Assembly (NCBI RefSeq): GCF_009931435.1
Contig: NZ_CP043414.1
Strand: one strand, 5' to 3'
DNA length: 64,000 nt
Source: Escherichia coli
GTDB lineage: Bacteria > Pseudomonadota > Gammaproteobacteria > Enterobacterales > Enterobacteriaceae
Part shown: positions 6,326 through 28,089 of the stretch, one piece after another
How positions within the stretch are numbered: position 1 is the stretch's first letter
How the letters are laid out: every line of letters begins with the position of its first letter
Notes under the pieces: generated by a model
The model's database searches: none
Seen by the model: only the letters and a program-made list of their open reading frames with translations
Told to the model about the DNA's origin: nothing
Program-made: the position numbers and the translations under genes

Positions 6326-7089
6326 GAGAACGCCTCCCGTTGCTCAAATACGCGGCTTAAAACATATTCGCGCATGGCGATGAATTGTGGATCGGACTTG
6401 ATGCTGCGGCTCGGTTCCCCGGCAACAAAGCGGCGGGCGAAGTTGAGCGGCAGGCGTTCCAGCACGCGGCCTGGGCCGGGTGAAAGCAGAACCAGTTCAG
6501 TCGCCATAAACACCGCTTCTTCTATATCGTGGGTAATCAACAGCACCTGCTTGCCCGTCTCCTGCCAGAGTTTCAGCAGCAGGGTTTGCATCTGGTCGCG
6601 GGTGAAGGCGTCCAGCGCGCCAAACGGTTCGTCGAGTAATAACAGCTGGGGATTTGCCGCCAGCGCGCGGGCAATCCCTACCCGCTGACGTTGACCGCCG
6701 GAAAGCTGCCAGATATAGCGTTTTTCTGCGCCTTCCAGCCCCACTTTTTTCAGCATCTGGTGCGCGATTTCCAGGCGCTGTACTTTCTCTACACCTGCCA
6801 GTTGCAGGCCGAATGCCACGTTGTCTACCACATTACGCCACGGCAACAGCCCTTCATTCTGAAAAACCACGCCCCGCTCTGCGCCCGGTCCCTCAATGCA
6901 CTTACCCGCCAGTTGAATGCTGCCATGCTGATAAGGCACAAAACCGGCAATCAGATTCAGCAAGGTGGTTTTGCCGCAGCCAGACGGTCCCAGAACCACC
7001 AGAAGCTCGCCGCTTTCCAGCGTCAGGTTGATATCTTCCAACGCCGGTTTGCCGCCATAATCGGCGTAAAGATGAGAGATTTGCAGCAT
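6322..7089 (-). CDS. tauB: Taurine ABC transporter ATP-binding protein
   Basis: Walker [13 protein letters not shown] signature [15 protein letters not shown] and Walker B LLLLDEP. Confidence 0.97.
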
Positions 7090-7101
7090 CTGCGCCTCCT
7101 T

Positions 7102-8064
7102 TTATTGCACGAAGCGCGAGGTCACGTACTGGCTGTAATCATTCGCCACGGCAGGGACTTTGCCCTGATCTTTCAAAAACTGCGCGGTATCAATGATCGC
7201 TTTATTCACCGGTCCGGTCAGTTCTGCCGTTTGTTGCTGCGGCGTCAGATAGGTATTCCCCTTCACCAGCCCCGGAACGTCACCTTCCGGCACGGCGCTT
7301 AAACGCGCCAGCTTGCTGATGTTTTCCGGCTGTTTCAGCCACGCGTCTGGGTTAGCAATGTACGGTTGCTGAGCATCGATGGCGCTTTTAGCGAACGCTT
7401 TCACGACTTCAGGATGTTTCTCGGCAAAATCTTTGCGCACGACCCAGACGTCCAGTGTCGGCGCGCCCCACTGCCCGACCTGTTCAGAATCGGTCAGCAC
7501 CTTGCCATCTTTTTCCAGGGCGTTAACCGCCGGTGCCCAGACATAAGCACCATCAATATCTCCCCGCTGCCATGCGGCGATAATCGCGGGCGGCTGCAGG
7601 TTCACAATCTCAACTTGCCCAGGTTTAATACCCCAGTGTTTCAGCGCCGCCAGCAGGCTGTAGTGGGTGGTGGAGATAAACGGTACGGCGATGCGTTTAC
7701 CAATGAGATCTTCGGGTTTGCTGATGGTTTTCTTCACCACCAGCGCTTCGGAGTTACCCAGTTTTGACGCCAGCAAGAAGACTTCAATCGGCACCTGTTG
7801 GCTGGCTGCAACCGCTAATGGGCTGGAACCGAGGTTGCCGATTTGCACGTCGCCAGAAGCCAGTGCTCGCACGATGCTGGCTCCGCTGTCAAACTTGCGC
7901 CAGTCCACCGTCGCCCCGCTCTCTTTAGCAAAGGTGTTATCAGCCTGAGCCACTTTCGCCGGTTCAGCGGAGGTTTGATAGGCCACGGTGACGTTCACCG
8001 CCTGTGCCTGAAAAGCGATGAATGCCAGTGCGGCAAGAAGTGTGTTACGCGATGAAATTGCCAT
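7102..8064 (-). CDS. tauA: Taurine ABC transporter periplasmic binding protein
   Basis: 320-aa ORF with signal peptide MAISSRNTLLAALAFIAFQAQA. It is the first gene of the tauABCD order. Confidence 0.96.
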   Translation of the reverse strand: MAISSRNTLLAALAFIAFQAQAVNVTVAYQTSAEPAKVAQADNTFAKESGATVDWRKFDSGASIVRALASGDVQIGNLGSSPLAVAASQQVPIEVFLLASKLGNSEALVVKKTISKPEDLIGKRIAVPFISTTHYSLLAALKHWGIKPGQVEIVNLQPPAIIAAWQRGDIDGAYVWAPAVNALEKDGKVLTDSEQVGQWGAPTLDVWVVRKDFAEKHPEVVKAFAKSAIDAQQPYIANPDAWLKQPENISKLARLSAVPEGDVPGLVKGNTYLTPQQQTAELTGPVNKAIIDTAQFLKDQGKVPAVANDYSQYVTSRFVQ

Positions 8065-16969: not shown

Positions 16970-17914
16970 TCAGTTCTCTGTTCTGGCGCTTAACGAGCCA
17001 AATCCGGCAATCCACTCCGGGATCGGGCGGTAATAACGCCCTTCGCTACGCCAGTTGCCAAACGCAGAAATAGCGGCAAAAGCAGCGACCCAGGTTTTGA
17101 TTTCATGTGTCGACTTTCCTGCAATGGCGGAAAGCTCTTCGTTACTGACGGCATCCAGTTCCTGTATGCGTCCCTGCTCCAGCAAAGACATGAACTGGTT
17201 ATCCCAAATCGGGTTGAGCGGATGCAGAGTTCTCTGATCCTCAACAAACCTCTCAGCGGCGCTAATCACCCGTTGCTGGCGCATTTCGCGCTCATTGGCG
17301 GGCAAATCTTTCCCGCTACCCAACAGACGATCGCGCATATGGGCATCCGCTTTCGCCAGTTCTGGCACTGGCGGCTGATGGGAAAGCCCACCGGAACCCA
17401 GGAACAGCACGCGCTTATTCAGCGTGCTGGTGAAACGTCCAATGGCTTCACCCAACATGCGGGTACGCTGAAAACCAGGTAGCGGCGTGGCGACACCGTT
17501 GATGAATACAGGCAGGACCGGCACCTTATCCAGCCCACCGAGCAAGAACTCCAGCGGCTGGGCGAACCCATGATCCACCTGCATACAGTAAGAAACGGCA
17601 AGATCAATCCCGCTCTTCATGACGGCATGCGCACAAGCCTCCGCCAACTCCACAGGCACGGGCAGCTCTCCTGCCGCACTGCCGAAATCACCAATTGCCG
17701 TCGCTCCAACGCCTAAACAGAACGGTGGCATCACGTCATAGAAAAAGCCGTTGTAATGATCTGGCGCAAACAGCACCACCAGTTCAGGGGAGAAGGCCGC
17801 AATACGCTCGCGGGCACTGGCAATCACGCCATTGACCTCATCAAGTATCTCTTGCGCCGGGTCGACATACCCTACCAGCGGCGAGTGGGAAAGACAGTGA
17901 AGATAAGCGTGCAT
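16970..17914 (-). CDS. mhpB: 2,3-dihydroxyphenylpropionate 1,2-dioxygenase (extradiol)
   Basis: 314-aa ORF starting [19 protein letters not shown], of the LigB-type extradiol dioxygenase family. Confidence 0.96.
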
Positions 17915-17915
17915 A

Positions 17916-19580
17916 TCAGGCTACCTTTTCGACAGAAACGTCGACATCAGGGCGGTTGAGTGTCATCACGGACGCCAGTTTATTCAGCGTATTACCCAGA
18001 GTTTGCGGAATGGCGATGGCGGCAACAAAGCGATCCGGGCGCATCACCACTAGCGAAGCATTATGTTGTGCGAACCAGCTACGCAGGCGACCTTGCGTAT
18101 CGCCCACGCGCAGCACGCCGTCGTGGTTATCCTGCGCGGTATGAATTTGCACATCCGGCACCACCTGAATGAAGCAAGTACCCAGCGCGCGCCATTGCTG
18201 GATTTGCTCATCGCTCATCCCCCACAGTGGATTGCATCCCCAGCCAATTACCGCGAAGTTCGCGCCGATCGCGTTATCGAGCAACGTCACGTCGCCGTTT
18301 TCCAGCGTAACTTTCGGCTGAATAAACATCTTGCCGACCGGAGAGTGTTTCGCTTCGCCTTCACGCACCAGCGCACCGGCGTAATATTGCGGCATCGGCT
18401 TGAAGCGCATTTCGAGAAAGTAGCGTTTTACTGGCGGCAGATAATTCAGCAGCCAGGAAACACCGTCACGTAACGTACCCTGCCAGCGTTTCGGCGGAGC
18501 CAGTACGTTGCCCGCCGTCACCGACAGATCAATCATCGCTTTGGCGTGATCGCGACGTTCTTGTTGATAGGTATCGAGCAGCGCATCGCGAGCTTTCCCC
18601 TGGATAACCAACGCCAGTTTCCAGGCGAGGTTAAAGGCGTCGCGCATACCACTGTTATAGCCCTGCCCCTGCCACACCGGCATGATATGTGCGGCATCGC
18701 CCGCCAGCAGTACGCGGTCAATACGAAAACGTTGTGCCAGTCGCGCGTTGTGGGTGTAGACACGCTGACGAATCAACTCGACGTTGTCCGGATTAGGCAG
18801 CACTTTGCTTAACAGTTTGCGCATATTTTGCGGCTCGCGGAGCTGTTCTTCGGTTTCGCCCGGCATCACCATAAATTCAAAGCGACGTACCGCATGAGGC
18901 AGAGCTGCAGAAACATACGGGCGCACCGGATCGCAACACAAATAGATATGCGGCGTACTTAACGGATCGTTGGCGATATCCACCACAATCCACTGATTTG
19001 GTGCGGTTTTACCTTCAAACGGCACATTCAGGGTGCGCCGGACAAAACTTGCTCCACCGTCACAGGCTACCAGCCACTGGGCTTTGACCGTTTCCCGCTG
19101 CCCTTCTGCCGTTTTCAGATACAAGGTCACTTCGTCATCTTGCTGGCTGAAGGCCTCCAGCTCGCGGGAAAACAGGCAGCGCACATTCGGAAACCGCGAC
19201 AACCCTTCCAGCATCACCGCATCGACCTGCGGCTGAATAAAGGCGTTACGACGCGGCCAGCCAAATTCATCGGTCATTGGCTGAATATCAGCAAAACAGC
19301 GGCCTTTTGGGGTAAGAAAACGCATCGCATGCCACGGCGTAGTGTGCGGCAGAACATTATCGACAAGGCCAACCGACTGCATGGTGCGCAGCGCCTCGTC
19401 ATCAATTCCAATCGCGCGTGGATAGTCGATCAACTTATCGAGTTTCTCCACCACCAGCACGTCAATGCCCATCTGGCCGAGATAGTTCGCCATCATCAGC
19501 CCGACCGGACCGGCACCAGCGATCGCCACCTGAACGCAATGGTTAACAGCAGGCTGGATGTCAGGGTGTTGTATTGCCAT
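17916..19580 (-). CDS. mhpA: 3-(3-hydroxyphenyl)propionate hydroxylase (FAD monooxygenase)
   Basis: 554 aa with the FAD-binding motif [17 protein letters not shown]. Confidence 0.96.
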
Positions 19581-19721
19581 TTCAGTACCTCACGACTCGG
19601 ACAAAATGCCGTTGCGCGCACAGTTCTACGCAACTTATTTTGTTAAAAACATGTAAATGATTTTTTATTGTGCGCTCAGTATAGGAAGGGTGTTTTCGGC
19701 TACAATCAAAACATGCCTGAG

Positions 19722-19738
19722 TGTGCACCAAGTGCACA
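19722..19738. promoter_or_regulatory. Perfect 7-3-7 palindrome in the mhpA-mhpR divergent region, candidate MhpR (IclR-type) operator
   Basis: tgtgcac-caa-gtgcaca lies about 140 bp upstream of the mhpA start. MhpR is known to bind a palindrome upstream of the mhpA promoter. Confidence 0.6.
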
Positions 19739-19770
19739 ACGTTGTTTTAACTATAGAAATGTCAATTAAT

Positions 19771-20604
19771 ATGCAGAAAGATGAGCAGACGGAATACAAA
19801 ACCGTGCGCGGCTTAACCCGCGGTCTAATGTTATTAAATATGTTAAATAAACTCGATGGCGGTGCCAGCGTCGGGCTGCTGGCGGAGCTCAGCGGCCTGC
19901 ATCGCACCACTGTGCGGCGACTGCTGGAAACGCTGCAGGAAGAGGGATATGTCCGGCGCAGTACCTCCGATGACAGTTTTCGTCTGACCATCAAAGTGCG
20001 GCAATTAAGCGAAGGATTTCGTGACGAACAATGGATTTCTGCACTGGCAGCCCCGCTGCTGGGCGATCTGTTGCGCGAAGTGGTATGGCCGACAGATGTG
20101 TCCACGCTGGATGTTGATGCAATGGTGGTACGCGAAACCACCCACCGTTTCAGCCGTTTATCTTTTCACCGGGCAATGGTCGGACGGCGTTTACCGCTCC
20201 TGAAAACCGCCTCGGGCCTGACCTGGCTGGCCTTTTGCCCGGAACAAGAACGCAAGGAGTTAATCGAAATGTTAGCCGCCCGTCCCGGTGATGACTATCA
20301 GCTGGCACGGGAGCCGTTAAAGCTGGAAGCCATTCTGGCGCGCGCACGCAAAGAGGGTTACGGACAGAACTACCGTGGCTGGGATCAGGAAGAGAAGATC
20401 GCCTCCATTGCCGTGCCCCTACGCAGTGAACAACGGGTGATTGGCTGTCTGAATCTGGTGTATATGGCAAGCGCAATGACCATCGAACAGGCAGCGGAAA
20501 AGCATCTTCCGGCGCTACAACGGGTAGCAAAACAGATCGAAGAAGGGGTTGAATCGCAGGCTATTCTGGTGGCCGGACGGCGAAGCGGCGTGCATTTACG
20601 CTAG
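19771..20604 (+). CDS. mhpR: IclR-family activator of the mhp operon
   Basis: The 277-aa form starting MQKDEQTEYKTVRGLTRGLMLLNML is recognisable as MhpR. The ORF-track start at 19657 adds 38 aa. Confidence 0.94.
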   Translation: MQKDEQTEYKTVRGLTRGLMLLNMLNKLDGGASVGLLAELSGLHRTTVRRLLETLQEEGYVRRSTSDDSFRLTIKVRQLSEGFRDEQWISALAAPLLGDLLREVVWPTDVSTLDVDAMVVRETTHRFSRLSFHRAMVGRRLPLLKTASGLTWLAFCPEQERKELIEMLAARPGDDYQLAREPLKLEAILARARKEGYGQNYRGWDQEEKIASIAVPLRSEQRVIGCLNLVYMASAMTIEQAAEKHLPALQRVAKQIEEGVESQAILVAGRRSGVHLR

Positions 20605-20718
20605 TTGCGCCAATGTGTAATTTGGCCCATTCTCATCGTTATTCGCCCATTTGCCCACATGCACAGTACGGGCTGCACGCTACGCTAATGCCATCAATAC
20701 TGTGATGTGGAGCAAATC

Positions 20719-21495
20719 ATGAAAATTACTCAAATTCGTAATGCCACCCAAATTATCCAATACGCTGGCAAAACATTTCTTATTGACCCGTTACTCGCGC
20801 CTAAAGGAAGTTATCCGGGTTTTGCCGGAACGGCACGCGCAGAAATCCGCAATCCAACGGTAGAATTACCGTGCGATTTAACAACGTTACTCAACGTTGA
20901 CGCCCTAATAGTGACCCATTTGCATGAAGATCACTGGGACGAAACAGCCTCCCGCGTCGTCCCCAAAGATAAACGGATTTATGTGCAAAATGAGCAAGAT
21001 GCTGAATCACTGCATAAACAAGGATTTACGCATCTTACCGTACTTGCCGACGAGACTAAATTTGGCGATATTACTCTGCATAAAACGACAGGGCAGCACG
21101 GCTCCGATCACACCTATGCAGACCCGGCTATGGCGAAGCGTTTAGGCGCAGCCTGCGGCGTTGTTTTCCAGCACCCGACAGAGAAAACGCTCTATCTGGC
21201 TGGCGATACCCTCTGGCGTGATGACGTCGAGGCTACAATGCTAACTTTCCAACCAGAAGTGGTGGTGTTGAATGCCGGATTTGCGCATGTTCTGGGGCAT
21301 GGCGCGATAATTATGGGAGCTGAAGATATTCTCAAAACACATTTTACCCTGCCAGAAGCGCAAATTGTCGCGACACATATGGAGGCCGTAAACCACTGTT
21401 TGCTGACGCGTGATGCGCTCAAGGAATACGCCAGAGATAATCAAATTATCGAATTTGTGAACGTACCAGAAGATGGTGAAACGTTGACATTCTAA
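20719..21495 (+). CDS. MBL-fold metallo-hydrolase, substrate unknown
   Basis: 258 aa with the HxHxDH motif THLHEDH. The ATG at 20719 is preceded by ggag (20709-20712). The ORF-track start at 20707 is a GTG. Confidence 0.85.
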   Translation: MKITQIRNATQIIQYAGKTFLIDPLLAPKGSYPGFAGTARAEIRNPTVELPCDLTTLLNVDALIVTHLHEDHWDETASRVVPKDKRIYVQNEQDAESLHKQGFTHLTVLADETKFGDITLHKTTGQHGSDHTYADPAMAKRLGAACGVVFQHPTEKTLYLAGDTLWRDDVEATMLTFQPEVVVLNAGFAHVLGHGAIIMGAEDILKTHFTLPEAQIVATHMEAVNHCLLTRDALKEYARDNQIIEFVNVPEDGETLTF

Positions 21496-21514
21496 TTCGG
21501 AGATAAAGAGTGTT

Positions 21515-22468
21515 ATGCGCCCGCTAACTGTTGCCATTATCGCCGTTGCCGGTTTTAGTCCTTTTCACCTTTCCGTACCGTTTATCGTGTTTAGCGAAAA
21601 AATGGCGGAGAAAAAACGCTTTCATGTAATTATCTGCGCTGAAAAGCCGGGAAACGTGGACTCTGCCGATGGGTTTTCCGTAACCGCCACCCATGACTAT
21701 ACGGCAGTCATCCAGGCGGATATTGTGATAATTCCTTACTGGGGAACAATTACACAAAAACCGCCACAAAAACTGCTGGAAGCCTTAACGACCGCACGAG
21801 ATAACGGGGCACAGATTGTCGGGCTTTGCCTGGGCACGTTTGTGCTCGGCTATGCAGGTTTACTGAACAATAAGCGTGCTGCCACGCACTGGGAGTTCGA
21901 GCGTGAATTTCAGGCACGTTTTCCACAAACACATCTGGATATTAACGCGTTGTATGTAGACGATGATGGCATTATTACCTCTGCCGGTACTGCCGCGGCG
22001 CTGGATTGCTGTTTGTATATTGTTCGGCAACATTTTGGCAGCGACTATGCTAACCATATTGCCCGACGGATGGTCGTACCGCCATATCGCACCGGCGGTC
22101 AGGCGCAGTTTATAGAGCAACCGGTGCCGAAAAATACCCATGATGAACGCATTAACCTCCTGCTGGATTACCTGCGGCAAAACATTGCGCAACAGCATGA
22201 TCTCGACTCGCTGGCTCAGCGAGTAATGATGAGTCGCCGCACACTAACCCGTCATTTTATGAAAGCGACCGGTTCGAGTATCGCCGAATGGCTCATCACT
22301 GAACGCTTACGCCGTAGCCAGGAACTGTTGGGATCCAGTCAGTTGCCCGTTGAGCGGATAGCGGCTGAGGTGGGTTTTCTCTCACCTGTGACCTGGCGTC
22401 AGCATTTTAAATCTCACTTCGGCGTCAGCCCCGCAGAATGGCGCAAAACCTTTCGTGGTATGGCATGA
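21515..22468 (+). CDS. GlxA-type transcriptional regulator (DJ-1/PfpI-like N-domain plus AraC HTH C-domain)
   Basis: 317 aa. The N-terminal part is amidotransferase-like (VAIIAVAGFSPFHLSVP...GLCLGTFVLG). The C-terminal part is an AraC-type HTH (RRTLTRHFMKATGSSIAEWLITERLRRSQELL...GFLSPVTWRQHFKSHFGVSPAEWRK). Confidence 0.88.
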   Translation: MRPLTVAIIAVAGFSPFHLSVPFIVFSEKMAEKKRFHVIICAEKPGNVDSADGFSVTATHDYTAVIQADIVIIPYWGTITQKPPQKLLEALTTARDNGAQIVGLCLGTFVLGYAGLLNNKRAATHWEFEREFQARFPQTHLDINALYVDDDGIITSAGTAAALDCCLYIVRQHFGSDYANHIARRMVVPPYRTGGQAQFIEQPVPKNTHDERINLLLDYLRQNIAQQHDLDSLAQRVMMSRRTLTRHFMKATGSSIAEWLITERLRRSQELLGSSQLPVERIAAEVGFLSPVTWRQHFKSHFGVSPAEWRKTFRGMA

Positions 22469-22469
22469 T
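22441..22469 (+). promoter_or_regulatory. lacI promoter (-35 gcgcaa, 17-bp spacer, -10 catgat)
   Basis: gcgcaaaacctttcgtggtatggcatgat matches the classical lacI promoter sequence (recalled gcgcaaaacctttcgcggtatggcatgat). It lies inside the last codons of the upstream regulator gene. Confidence 0.85.
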
Positions 22470-22504
22470 AGCGCCCGGAAGAAAGTCAATTCAGGGTGGT
22501 GAAT

Positions 22505-23587
22505 GTGAAACCAGTAACGCTATACGATGTCGCGGAGTATGCCGGTGTCTCTTATCAGACCGTTTCCCGCGTGGTGAATCAGGCCAGCCACGTTTCAGCG
22601 AAAACGCGGGAAAAAGTGGAAGCGGCGATGGCGGAGCTAAATTACATTCCCAACCGCGTAGCACAACAGTTAGCGGGCAAACAGTCGTTGCTGATTGGCG
22701 TTGCCACCTCCAGTCTGGCCCTGCACGCACCGTCGCAAATTGTCGCGGCGATTAAATCTCGCGCCGATCAACTGGGTGCCAGCGTGGTGGTGTCGATGGT
22801 AGAAAGAAGCGGTGTCGAAGCCTGTAAAGCGGCAGTACACAATCTTCTCGCGCAACGCGTAAGTGGTCTGATCATCAACTATCCGCTGGATGACCAGGAT
22901 GCCATTGCTGTGGAGGCAGCCTGCGCTAATGTTCCGGCGCTATTTCTTGATGTCTCTGACCAGACTCCCATCAACAGTATTATTTTTTCCCATGAAGACG
23001 GTACACGGCTGGGCGTAGAGCATTTGGTCGCATTGGGTCACCAGCAAATCGCGCTGTTAGCGGGCCCATTAAGTTCTGTCTCGGCGCGTCTGCGTCTGGC
23101 GGGCTGGCATAAATATCTTAAACACAATCAAATTCAACCGATAGCGGAACGGGAAGGCGACTGGAGCGCCATGTCCGGTTTTCATCAAACCATGCAGATG
23201 CTGAATGAGGGCATCATTCCTACTGCGATGCTGGTTGCCAACGATCAGATGGCGCTGGGTGCAATGCGCGCCATTACCGAGTTCGGGCTGCGCGTCGGCG
23301 CGGATATCTCGGTAGTGGGATACGACGATACCGAAGACAGCTCGTGTTATATCCCGCCATTAACGACCATCAAACAGGATTTTCGCCTGCTTGGGCAAAC
23401 CAGCGTGGACCGCTTGCTGCAACTCTCTCAGGGCCAGGCAGTGAAGGGCAATCAGCTGTTGCCCGTCTCACTGGTGAAACGAAAAACCACCCTGCCACCC
23501 AATACGCAAACCGCTTCTCCCCAGGCGTTGGCTGATTCCTTAATGCAGCTGGCGCGACAAATTTCCCGACTGGAAAGCGAGCAGTGA
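22505..23587 (+). CDS. lacI: Lactose operon repressor
   Basis: GTG start followed by KPVTLYDVAEYAGVSYQTVSRVVNQ. The 360-aa protein is recognisable as LacI. Confidence 0.98.
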   Translation: MKPVTLYDVAEYAGVSYQTVSRVVNQASHVSAKTREKVEAAMAELNYIPNRVAQQLAGKQSLLIGVATSSLALHAPSQIVAAIKSRADQLGASVVVSMVERSGVEACKAAVHNLLAQRVSGLIINYPLDDQDAIAVEAACANVPALFLDVSDQTPINSIIFSHEDGTRLGVEHLVALGHQQIALLAGPLSSVSARLRLAGWHKYLKHNQIQPIAEREGDWSAMSGFHQTMQMLNEGIIPTAMLVANDQMALGAMRAITEFGLRVGADISVVGYDDTEDSSCYIPPLTTIKQDFRLLGQTSVDRLLQLSQGQAVKGNQLLPVSLVKRKTTLPPNTQTASPQALADSLMQLARQISRLESEQ

Positions 23588-23600
23588 GCGCAACGCAATT
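23580..23600. promoter_or_regulatory. lac operator O3
   Basis: agcagtgagcgcaacgcaatt differs by one base from the recalled K-12 O3 and overlaps the lacI stop. Confidence 0.85.
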
Positions 23601-23621
23601 AATGTGAGTCAGCTCACTCAT
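23600..23621. promoter_or_regulatory. CRP (CAP) binding site of the lac promoter
   Basis: taatgtgagtcagctcactcat contains the TGTGA-N6-TCACT core. Confidence 0.92.
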
Positions 23622-23635
23622 TAGGCACCCCAGGC

Positions 23636-23665
23636 TTTACACCTGATGTGTCCGACTCGTATGTT
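23636..23665 (+). promoter_or_regulatory. lacZYA promoter (-35 tttaca, 18-bp spacer, -10 tatgtt)
   Basis: The hexamers are identical to classical lacP. The spacer sequence differs from the recalled K-12 spacer at several positions. Confidence 0.9.
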
Positions 23666-23671
23666 GTATGA

Positions 23672-26784
<3,113 letters not shown>

Positions 26785-26790
26785 TAATAA

Positions 26791-28089
<1,299 letters not shown>

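Follow-up and report, generated by a model that had tools for sequence, protein, structure and literature searches.

The weak, constitutive lacI promoter of Escherichia coli K-12 appears to be the surviving 3′ end of a regulator gene, ovrA, which most E. coli have lost; the strain studied here still carries the gene intact, in what seems to be the older form of the mhpR–lacI junction. We analysed a 64-kb stretch of chromosome (hereafter the window). Between mhpR and lacI it holds a 1.9-kb segment that, judged by its genes and position, is O-island 19 (OI-19), comprising a gene for a metal-dependent hydrolase of the SaxA type followed by ovrA. We regard the account as a whole as likely, namely that OI-19 represents the older state, that the lacI promoter is the tail of ovrA, that deletions produced the junctions seen in most genomes, and that OvrA would act on the hydrolase gene as proposed below. 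The features on which it draws are these:

19771–20604, + strand: mhpR, encoding the IclR-family activator of the mhp operon; left flank (ORF; Pfam HTH_IclR and IclR_C)
20622–20661, + strand: predicted OvrA operator, TTGGCCCATTCTCATCGTTATTCGCCCATTTGCCCACATG, 40 bp (conserved block, putative binding site)
20658–20686, + strand: putative promoter of the hydrolase–regulator operon (read from the sequence)
20719–21495, + strand: saxA-like gene for an MBL-fold hydrolase of 258 aa, orthologue of z0443 / ECs_0400 (Pfam Lactamase_B_2)
21515–22468, + strand: ovrA, encoding a GlxA-type regulator of 317 aa, orthologue of z0442 / ECs_0399 (Pfam)
22370–22468, + strand: 99 bp of ovrA kept in UTI89-type (B2) genomes, there joined to the yaiL upstream region
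22436–22468, + strand: 33 bp of ovrA (last 10 codons and stop) kept by K-12-type genomes (sequence comparison)
22441–22446, + strand: lacI promoter −35, GCGCAA, in the codons tGG CGC AAa (Trp-Arg-Lys) (sequence)
22464–22469, + strand: lacI promoter −10, CATGAT, including the ovrA stop TGA (22466–22468) (sequence)
22477–22504, + strand: lacI leader, from the K-12 transcription start (GGAAGA...) to the GTG (sequence)
22505–23587, + strand: lacI, GTG start at 22505, 360 aa; right flank (ORF list, Pfam, annotation)

A preliminary description of this DNA had noted two extra co-oriented genes between mhpR and lacI, which it took to be neighbours in K-12. Both points hold: the ORF list gives mhpR, the hydrolase gene (20719–21495), the regulator gene (21515–22468) and lacI in that order 5′ to 3′, all four on the + strand, and in K-12-type genomes mhpR and lacI lie 76 bp apart. 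The mhpR stop codon, TAG, occupies 20602–20604, and the name is that annotated in NZ_AP027764, a record 100% identical to the window. The same description had left the function of the pair as unknown, a statement now superseded: the pair is OI-19, comprising OvrA, reported in the literature to activate LEE1/ler, and a close SaxA homologue.

OI-19 of EHEC O157:H7 EDL933 occupies the same mhpR–lacI locus with the same two genes (z0442, which is ovrA, and z0443), and the Sakai counterparts, ECs_0399/ECs_0400, share 97.6–97.9% nucleotide identity with those of the window (97.6% for ovrA, within the same flanking genes, and 97.9% for the hydrolase gene). The OvrA proteins of the window and of Sakai belong to the same 90% protein cluster, and in one RefSeq record the orthologue carries the label ‘ovrA: OI-19-encoded virulence regulator OvrA’. 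In contrast to EDL933, the strain studied here, 2017-02-2CC, was isolated from human faeces; the LEE is absent from the 64-kb window. OI-19 has been counted among the islands ‘unique’ to EHEC, with z0443 termed unknown (PMC10877973; PMC8565820), and the OI-19 literature examined mentions neither the SaxA homology of z0443 nor the overlap with the lacI promoter.

The lacI promoter and the 3′ end of ovrA

The last codons of ovrA (gaa tgg cgc aaa acc ttt cgt ggt atg gca tga, 22436–22468) agree with the sequence upstream of lacI in K-12 at 32 of 33 positions (C600 locus sequence, its positions 1713–1745; the MG1655 junction is the same as that of C600). The sole mismatch lies in the promoter spacer, at 22456 (T in the window, C in K-12), and the ovrA end of O157:H7 Sakai is identical to K-12 at 33 of 33. 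The near-identity asserted in the preliminary description is thus borne out, and alignment extends it past the promoter hexamers to 32 of the 33 bp; the match is real and far beyond chance.

GCGCAA, 17 bp and CATGAT follow one another at 22441–22469, and the −35 and −10 that had been placed within the ovrA end are located there, at 22441–22446 and 22464–22469. Hexamers and spacing are those of K-12 PlacI, a sigma-70 promoter. GCGCAA is the established −35 hexamer of the K-12 promoter (reportedly described by Calos in 1978), in which the lacIq change turns GCGCAA into GTGCAA, and we place the transcription start at 22477 after the K-12 literature. Promoter and leader each differ from those of K-12 by one change, that in the spacer being C to T at 22456; the main contrast is one of setting, the promoter of the window lying inside an intact, translated gene, where transcription from upstream can reach it. 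The weak lacI promoter lies within the last 28 bp of ovrA, its −35 in the Trp-Arg-Lys codons and its −10 across the stop.

The peptide E-W-R-K-T-F-R-G, encoded over the −35 and the spacer, is kept as SPxEWR[KR]xF[RG]G in ~80 homologues from gamma-, beta-, alpha- and deltaproteobacteria, most of them without lacI nearby, and a check on homologues outside the lac context found that their last codons do encode an EWRKTFRG-like sequence. Because this C-terminal peptide is conserved in proteins whose genes mostly have no lacI beside them, the promoter sequence appears to be coding in origin, in agreement with the earlier proposal that it is embedded in, or derived from, coding sequence. The −10 reads CATGAT or CATCAT upstream of lacI at every locus inspected in E. 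coli, cryptic-clade Escherichia and Citrobacter. The −35 shows less than strict conservation: cryptic-clade Escherichia and C. sedlakii have GCGAAA, which suggests weak constraint at this hexamer.

Few promoters in molecular biology are used or taught as widely as that of lacI. We found no statement in the literature that it is a gene remnant, which is weak evidence, as subscription journals lay mostly outside the search. If our account holds, this promoter is a fossil, the 3′ tail of a regulator gene, an origin that would explain why it is weak and seems arbitrary, and it offers a clean natural case of a promoter embedded in, and then outliving, a coding sequence.

Deletions and the age of the mhpR–lacI segment

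The distribution of the pair was mapped across 5426 complete E. coli genomes. A K-12-type junction occurs in 4462 (82%) and a B2-type deletion junction in 487 (9%), while 435 (8%) keep both genes; no intermediate deletion forms appeared in 60 entries sampled evenly over 922 matching genomes. K-12 retains exactly the last 33 bp of the ovrA ORF, in frame, to its stop. Most E. coli (the 82%) would then descend, at this locus, from one deletion of ~1.83 kb that left these 33 bp behind. The B2-type deletion has another left end, in yaiL, and keeps 99 bp of ovrA, a remnant that PGAP annotates as a GlxA-family pseudogene; it goes back to a separate event, found within part of phylogroup B2 and independent of the first, that removed the mhp cluster and most of OI-19.

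The K-12-type junction carries 7–9 nt of filler, of which GACACCATC is common to K-12 and ST131. A search for the source of (T)GACACCATC in window positions 19000–24000 gave no match at ≤2 mismatches, and a two-step origin via a 9-mer, ACGTTGACA, that recurs towards the end of the MBL gene yielded no coherent model. In the window an 8-bp inverted repeat, TTGCGCCA/TGGCGCAA, is placed precisely at both deletion end points; Sakai has TTACGCCA instead, and the repeat was judged to be chance.

Outside E. coli, 11 Citrobacter species representatives have the order mhpA (reversed), mhpR, MBL, GlxA, lacI (these four forward), lacZ. The compact layout of C. sedlakii is identical, its −10 likewise spanning the stop, and the mhpR–MBL–regulator–lacI order recurs in cryptic-clade Escherichia. 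Several Citrobacter species have a 0.77-kb insertion between ovrA and lacI, and in these a degenerate second ovrA 3′ end adjoins lacI (in C. murliniae a 23/27 match, z = 8.9, reached by 0/500 shuffles). Three separate rearrangements have therefore all kept the ovrA 3′ stretch, as would be expected if it were needed for LacI expression. Comparison across these lineages indicates that the OI-19-bearing layout is the older state of the mhpR–lacI junction. The preliminary description's reading of the K-12 arrangement as a deletion scar, rather than of the window strain as having an insertion, is supported by the exact 33-bp remnant, the lack of a target-site duplication, the shared gene order and the second, independent deletion.

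The received picture is of an island gained horizontally between mhpR and lacI by the EHEC lineage and a few others, the K-12 junction being original. Reviews treat O-islands as EHEC-specific (PMC10877973; PMC8565820), K-12 and 82% of genomes lack the block, its G+C (0.46–0.51, near the E. coli genome average) departs from that of the flanks (0.54–0.58), it is far less diverged than they are, as recent spread would have it, and paralogous hydrolase–regulator modules are carried on plasmids. We nevertheless consider such a gain very improbable, since it is contradicted by the ovrA remnant in K-12: an insertion cannot explain why K-12 carries, in frame, 33 bp encoding the motif of distant, lacI-free homologues. 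Those 33 bp are single-copy in island-bearing genomes, and the segment shows no target-site duplication, terminal or inverted repeat, integrase or border tRNA. Citrobacter, moreover, has the same layout with block genes about as diverged as lacI/lacZ (76–80% against 79–85% amino-acid identity), and the independent deletion keeps its own 99 bp of ovrA. OI-19 is thus recast as an older segment lost by most E. coli, rather than an island acquired by EHEC.

A subtler alternative accepts that the block is ancestral to the genus, and supposes that in the window strain (and perhaps in phylogroup E and the cryptic clade too) it is a recent re-import, through homologous recombination, from another Escherichia lineage. 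Among the window strain, Sakai and cryptic-clade Escherichia, OI-19 has diverged by 0–3% and its flanks by 3–10%, a 2–3 times lower value for the block that simple vertical inheritance together with the flanks does not predict. Vertical descent in the window strain is for this reason only one option, beside homologous re-acquisition. In all three pairwise comparisons, sliding-window identity is 97–100% over ~20550–22300 and 90–97% in mhpA, mhpR, lacI and lacZ. The K-12-type junction also sits on differing flanking haplotypes in distant phylogroups (K-12, ST131), from which it follows that the locus recombines. Against this, block-bearing haplotypes, a small minority (8%), could coalesce later than the flanks without any transfer, and the low-divergence tract has no visible extension into the flanks, unlike a simple recombination import. 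We see re-acquisition as a serious but less probable history than persistence of the ancestral block.

The hydrolase, OvrA and a predicted operator

The hydrolase matches Pfam Lactamase_B_2 (E 1.3e-10) and aligns with SaxA (PDB 6BRM; E 2.7e-87) over residues 1–258 against 1–259 at 53.9% identity, the metal motif HxHxDH occupying residues 67–72 of both (HLHEDH in the hydrolase, HTHTDH in 6BRM). SaxA converts isothiocyanates to an amine and carbonyl sulfide (PMC7303113), chemistry described further in PMC7036374, and we predict from the sequence that the E. coli enzyme is likewise an isothiocyanate hydrolase. It shares with SaxA (Pseudomonas syringae sax genes, Pectobacterium, insect-gut; 6BRM) the MBL fold, the position of HxHxDH and full-length homology, as well as an adjacent regulator gene (SaxC by the sax genes, ovrA here; PMC12903958). 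In contrast to that system, the E. coli gene is chromosomal and co-transcribed with its regulator, its activity being predicted from sequence; unlike betaproteobacterial and Marinobacter homologues in divergent layouts, the protein is without a signal peptide. In EDL933, z0443 is expressed in a 10-fold RpoS-dependent manner (PMC2907692), and its deletion gave no virulence phenotype (PMC8565820).

OvrA joins a DJ-1_PfpI domain (PF01965, residues 6–171) to a C-terminal double helix-turn-helix of AraC type (PF12833, HTH_18, residues 233–311; HTH_AraC also matched), the architecture of GlxA/FtrA/GbdR-type regulators, in which a DJ-1/PfpI or GATase1-like domain is fused to an AraC HTH. FtrA is its best NCBIfam match, but an identification as FtrA itself was rejected, the score of 324.4 bits falling below the 425-bit cut-off of the equivalog NF006902. 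Its sensor domain most resembles InhA, a Cys-dependent isonitrile hydratase, and Cys105 is invariant in 81/81 homologues. Regulator and hydrolase genes are adjacent at ~70/80 loci, and such modules also occur on plasmids. Published work, in EDL933 only, describes OvrA as an OI-19 regulator that binds the LEE1 promoter and activates ler (Liu et al., 2020, via PMC10877973 and PMC8565820).

Of 75 loci, 74 have a block resembling the predicted operator ahead of the hydrolase gene, in co-oriented and divergent layouts alike, with the family consensus TTGGCCCgAT-N5-TCGATAATTG-N8-GGcCAcT and half-sites TTGGCCC / TTGnCCn 21 bp apart. The blocks score 21–53 bits against a shuffle maximum of 1.7, and that of the window is the only match above 12 bits in the whole 64 kb. 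We infer that OvrA binds it at 20622–20661. In LEE1 the site published for OvrA (GACATTTAATGATAATG) is AT-rich, unlike this GC-rich block. As pair and operator are conserved where the LEE is mostly absent, the hydrolase promoter, and not LEE1, would be the ancestral target of OvrA. The putative operon promoter, missed by a consensus promoter scan, has a −10 of cTACGCT (20680–20686) that resembles a sigma-S −10, consistent with the RpoS dependence of z0443 in EDL933 (PMC2907692), and its −35 would fall over the operator's 3′ end.

We propose that OvrA, probably after its invariant Cys105 has reacted with an isothiocyanate or a similar electrophile, binds the 40-bp operator and activates the hydrolase–ovrA operon, and that the hydrolase would then turn isothiocyanates into amines; the gene content, homologies, junctions, distribution, synteny and operator footprint are observations, and we infer the ligand, the substrate, the operator binding and the read-through discussed below. 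A competing view, in which the enzyme acts on some other substrate, OvrA is mainly a virulence or global regulator, and the isothiocyanate link is spurious, deserves real but lesser credence. An identity of 54% does not guarantee a common substrate within the MBL superfamily, the NCBIfam match is a weak, sub-threshold one to a generic metal-dependent hydrolase, and no database source calls the protein SaxA; LEE1 is the only target of OvrA shown experimentally (PMC10877973; PMC8565820), and isothiocyanate does not induce saxC in Pseudomonas viridiflava (PMC12903958). Yet the alignment with SaxA runs from end to end without large gaps and with the metal motif in register, and pair and operator are conserved in four proteobacterial classes, most of whose members are without a LEE. 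The most likely conserved housekeeping target of a regulator studied only as a virulence activator is thus the SaxA-like hydrolase gene, and its control of the LEE would then be co-opted. It is a speculative and rather improbable extension of the proposed mechanism that isothiocyanates from plants or diet are the native signal, acting via Cys105 in OI-19-bearing Escherichia to induce the hydrolase, to change LacI dosage by read-through into lacI and, in EHEC/EPEC, to switch on the LEE via ler; if true, it would tie crucifer-derived gut compounds to both virulence and lac regulation.

Read-through of the operon into lacI is plausible since a terminator scan of 22400–22520 found none between ovrA and lacI. 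Rfam gave no match over 20300–22800 at E ≤ 1, and a generic promoter scan, which misses the known weak lacI promoter too, carries no weight here. Operon transcripts probably continue into lacI, where they could either supplement or disturb the output of the promoter inside ovrA. The start of ovrA (21519–21533) and lacI (22664–22678) form a perfect 15-nt inverted repeat, which was rejected as a feature: 16 of 300 shuffles gave one of at least that length, and it is not conserved, with 11–12 of 15 positions matching in Sakai and the cryptic clade and 6–9 of 15 in Citrobacter.

Origin of the K-12 mhpR–lacI junction

At this locus the window matches E. coli 2017-02-2CC, isolated from human faeces, at 100% identity and carries O-island 19 (OI-19, here the block) between mhpR and lacI. 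The lacI hexamers listed are placed according to the accepted assignment of the K-12 lacI promoter.

Features of the mhpR–lacI region (window positions; all four genes co-oriented)
19771-20604: mhpR
20719-21495: hydrolase ORF, 258 aa, Pfam Lactamase_B_2
21515-22468: regulator ORF (ovrA), 317 aa, Pfam DJ-1_PfpI and HTH_18/HTH_AraC
22436-22468: 3' end of ovrA, gaa tgg cgc aaa acc ttt cgt ggt atg gca tga
22441-22446: lacI -35 GCGCAA, within the Trp-Arg-Lys codons of ovrA
22464-22469: lacI -10 CATGAT, including the ovrA stop codon TGA
22505: GTG start of lacI

In K-12-type genomes mhpR and lacI lie 76 bp apart (C600, with the same junction in MG1655), and the sequence 5' of lacI (gaatggcgcaaaacctttcgcggtatggcatga... 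in C600) matches the ovrA end of the window at 32 of 33 positions and that of O157:H7 Sakai at 33/33. The preliminary description had proposed that the terminal codons of the regulator gene are nearly the K-12 sequence carrying the lacI -35 and -10, and that K-12 bears a deletion scar rather than the window strain an insertion; comparison of the K-12 mhpR–lacI region with the window confirms the first, and the second is supported. Insertion of the block into an uninterrupted K-12 junction cannot explain why K-12 retains exactly the last ten codons and stop of the ovrA ORF, and the block shows neither a target-site duplication nor terminal repeats, nor any mobility genes. An 8-bp inverted repeat at the block borders in the window, considered as an insertion signature, is not conserved in Sakai. 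The order mhpA (reversed), mhpR, hydrolase, regulator, lacI, lacZ recurs in eleven Citrobacter species representatives, including C. sedlakii with the same compact layout and CATGAT over the regulator stop codon, and mhpR–hydrolase–regulator–lacI is also present in cryptic-clade Escherichia. At the amino-acid level E. coli and Citrobacter are about as similar in the hydrolase and regulator (76–80% identity) as in LacI and LacZ (79–85%). Finally, UTI89-type genomes, from which the mhp cluster and most of the block are missing, keep a 99-bp piece of the regulator gene that is joined to the yaiL upstream region and annotated by PGAP as a GlxA-family pseudogene. These four lines of sequence evidence agree that the K-12 arrangement is the derived state.

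Among 5426 complete E. coli genomes, across which the spread of the pair was mapped, 4462 have the K-12-type junction, 435 have both genes intact (O157:H7 and O145 among them) and 487 have the UTI89-type junction (including ATCC 11775 and Nissle 1917); no intermediate deletion forms occurred among 60 evenly sampled rows. The short filler at the K-12-type junction (GACACCATC, 7–9 nt), for which no source was found in the locus, is the same in K-12 and ST131; this junction therefore arose once and now resides in distant phylogroups. Phylogroup B2 is itself split: ST131 combines the mhp cluster with the K-12-type junction, and UTI89, Nissle 1917 and ATCC 11775 have no mhp genes and the yaiL/99-bp-remnant junction.

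Comparison of the window strain, Sakai and cryptic-clade Escherichia gives 97–100% identity for the block (~20550-22300) and 90–97% for the flanks (17900-20500 and 22300-27300; mhpA, mhpR, lacI, lacZ), so the block has a younger common ancestor than its surroundings. Homologous recombination may have swapped the block between lineages at a later date than the divergence of the flanks, or, with only a minority of genomes carrying it, its copies may coalesce more recently; for the window strain, vertical inheritance is one possibility and recombination another. Derivation of the K-12 junction from block-bearing sequence is unaffected by either reading.

In the lac regulatory region (23588-23712) the window, Sakai and cryptic clade have TCAGC at the CAP-site centre (TTAGC in K-12), GTGTGAAATT at the left edge of O1 (GTATGAAATT in the window itself, GTGTGGAATT in K-12) and GGATACAGCT before lacZ (GGAAACAGCT in K-12). 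No change is seen in the lac promoter hexamers (TTTACA, TATGTT) or in the O1 core, while the promoter spacer varies. A perfect 15-nt inverted repeat between the ovrA start (21519-21533) and the inside of lacI (22664-22678) was attributed to chance, being not conserved in other lineages and equalled in length in 5% of shuffles.

The lacI promoter and the 3' end of ovrA

In 80 loci encoding regulator relatives, fetched from species-representative genomes, the C-terminal motif SPxEWR[KR]xF[RG]G is kept in Citrobacter, Kluyvera, Erwinia, Aeromonas, Vibrio, Marinobacter, many betaproteobacteria, Geomonas and one alphaproteobacterium, mostly with no lacI nearby. The codons holding the lacI -35 and spacer thus specify a family-wide motif that long predates their adjacency to lacI, and, as had been suggested earlier, the lacI promoter sequence is, on this comparative evidence, coding in origin.

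A third REARRANGEMENT, in the C. freundii complex, retains the same ovrA 3' stretch beside lacI. Here the intact regulator gene is set apart from lacI by a segment of ~770 bp, and a degenerate second copy of the regulator 3' end lies directly upstream of the lacI -10. The copy is clear in C. murliniae (23/27 matches, z = 8.9, 0/500 shuffles); others are each marginal (z ~2) and have GCCTCGCAGAA and AAAACC in common. Retention of the stretch through three independent rearrangements is what selection for LacI expression could produce. All loci compared preserve the -10. Constraint on the -35 is weak, since this hexamer varies, reading GCGAAA in C. sedlakii and the cryptic clade.

The ~770 bp segment overlaps the regulator stop codon and contains a 202-aa ORF (L008, a C. 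freundii-complex locus, 6948-7556, minus strand, opposite to the flanking genes) for a putative methyltransferase-like protein. In C. youngae ATCC 29220 the regulator–lacI gap is just 152 bp. Between mhpR and the hydrolase gene, the C. freundii complex has a further ~1.7 kb of small ORFs (112, 158 and 92 aa; L008 3552-5101) that E. coli and C. sedlakii do not have.

The gene pair and its predicted operator

The function of the pair had been called unknown, a statement that no longer holds. One RefSeq record names the regulator 'ovrA: OI-19-encoded virulence regulator OvrA'. In EDL933, OI-19 spans 1834 bp and comprises z0442 (ovrA) and z0443; OvrA, an activator of ler, binds GACATTTAATGATAATG in the LEE1 promoter; z0443 deletion gives no virulence phenotype, and reviews call z0443 unknown (PMC10877973, PMC8565820). 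The Sakai orthologues are ECs_0399 and ECs_0400. Expression of z0443 in EDL933 is ~10-fold RpoS-dependent (PMC2907692). Over its full length the hydrolase is homologous to the isothiocyanate hydrolase SaxA (PDB 6BRM; E 2.7e-87, 53.9% identity, HxHxDH in register). From isothiocyanates, SaxA enzymes yield amines and carbonyl sulfide (PMC7303113), and the SaxA authors report saxA to be widespread in Enterobacterales, with activity demonstrated for all five phylogenetic clusters (PMC7036374). No database source gives the E. coli protein the SaxA name, and neither SaxA nor OvrA appears in a 2025 review on isothiocyanates against EHEC. The regulator, of the GlxA type, scores below the FtrA equivalog cut-off; its sensor domain has as nearest solved structure the Cys-dependent isonitrile hydratase InhA, and 81/81 homologues keep Cys105, which occupies the nucleophile position.

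Both the pair and OvrA were already known, and the PGAP pseudogene annotation in B2 strains implies part of the lacI-promoter/ovrA relationship. Neither that relationship nor the SaxA identity of z0443 was found in the accessible literature, which excludes the primary OvrA and SaxA structure papers. The result is a well-supported evolutionary explanation of a famous promoter together with a testable functional prediction, not a new kind of system.

In 74 of 75 loci a 40-bp block precedes the hydrolase gene (consensus TTGGCCCgAT-N5-TCGATAATTG-N8-GGcCAcT, half-sites 21 bp apart). It scores 21–53 bits against <=1.7 bits in shuffles, optimistic values in that the matrix was trained on the same sequences, and matches the 64-kb window exactly once, at 20622-20661. 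Regulator and hydrolase genes are adjacent in ~70 of 80 loci, co-oriented or divergent, and on plasmids too. A non-coding block kept across four proteobacterial classes is strong evidence for an operator. From this conservation and adjacency we infer that OvrA would bind at 20622-20661 and activate the hydrolase–ovrA operon, probably from a sigma-S-like -10, cTACGCT (20680-20686), abutting the predicted operator. The signal may be an isothiocyanate or similar electrophile reacting with Cys105, and LEE1 activation would be a later co-opted function. The 36 bp separating ovrA from lacI showed no terminator, which makes transcriptional read-through into lacI plausible.

In the divergent layouts (betaproteobacteria, Marinobacter and related genera; L039-L083) the SaxA-like protein has an N-terminal signal-peptide-like extension; enterobacterial and Aeromonas proteins have none, and their genes are co-oriented with the regulator. 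Of the 401 plasmids with saxA-like matches, 128 come from Escherichia. A paralogous hydrolase–regulator module, 63% / 58% identical to the chromosomal pair and with a similar operator-like sequence upstream, lies on plasmid loci L085 (4001-5782; pTET-GZEC065, IncY) and L086 (3001-4759), and on the IncY plasmid an 'ester cyclase' gene comes next.
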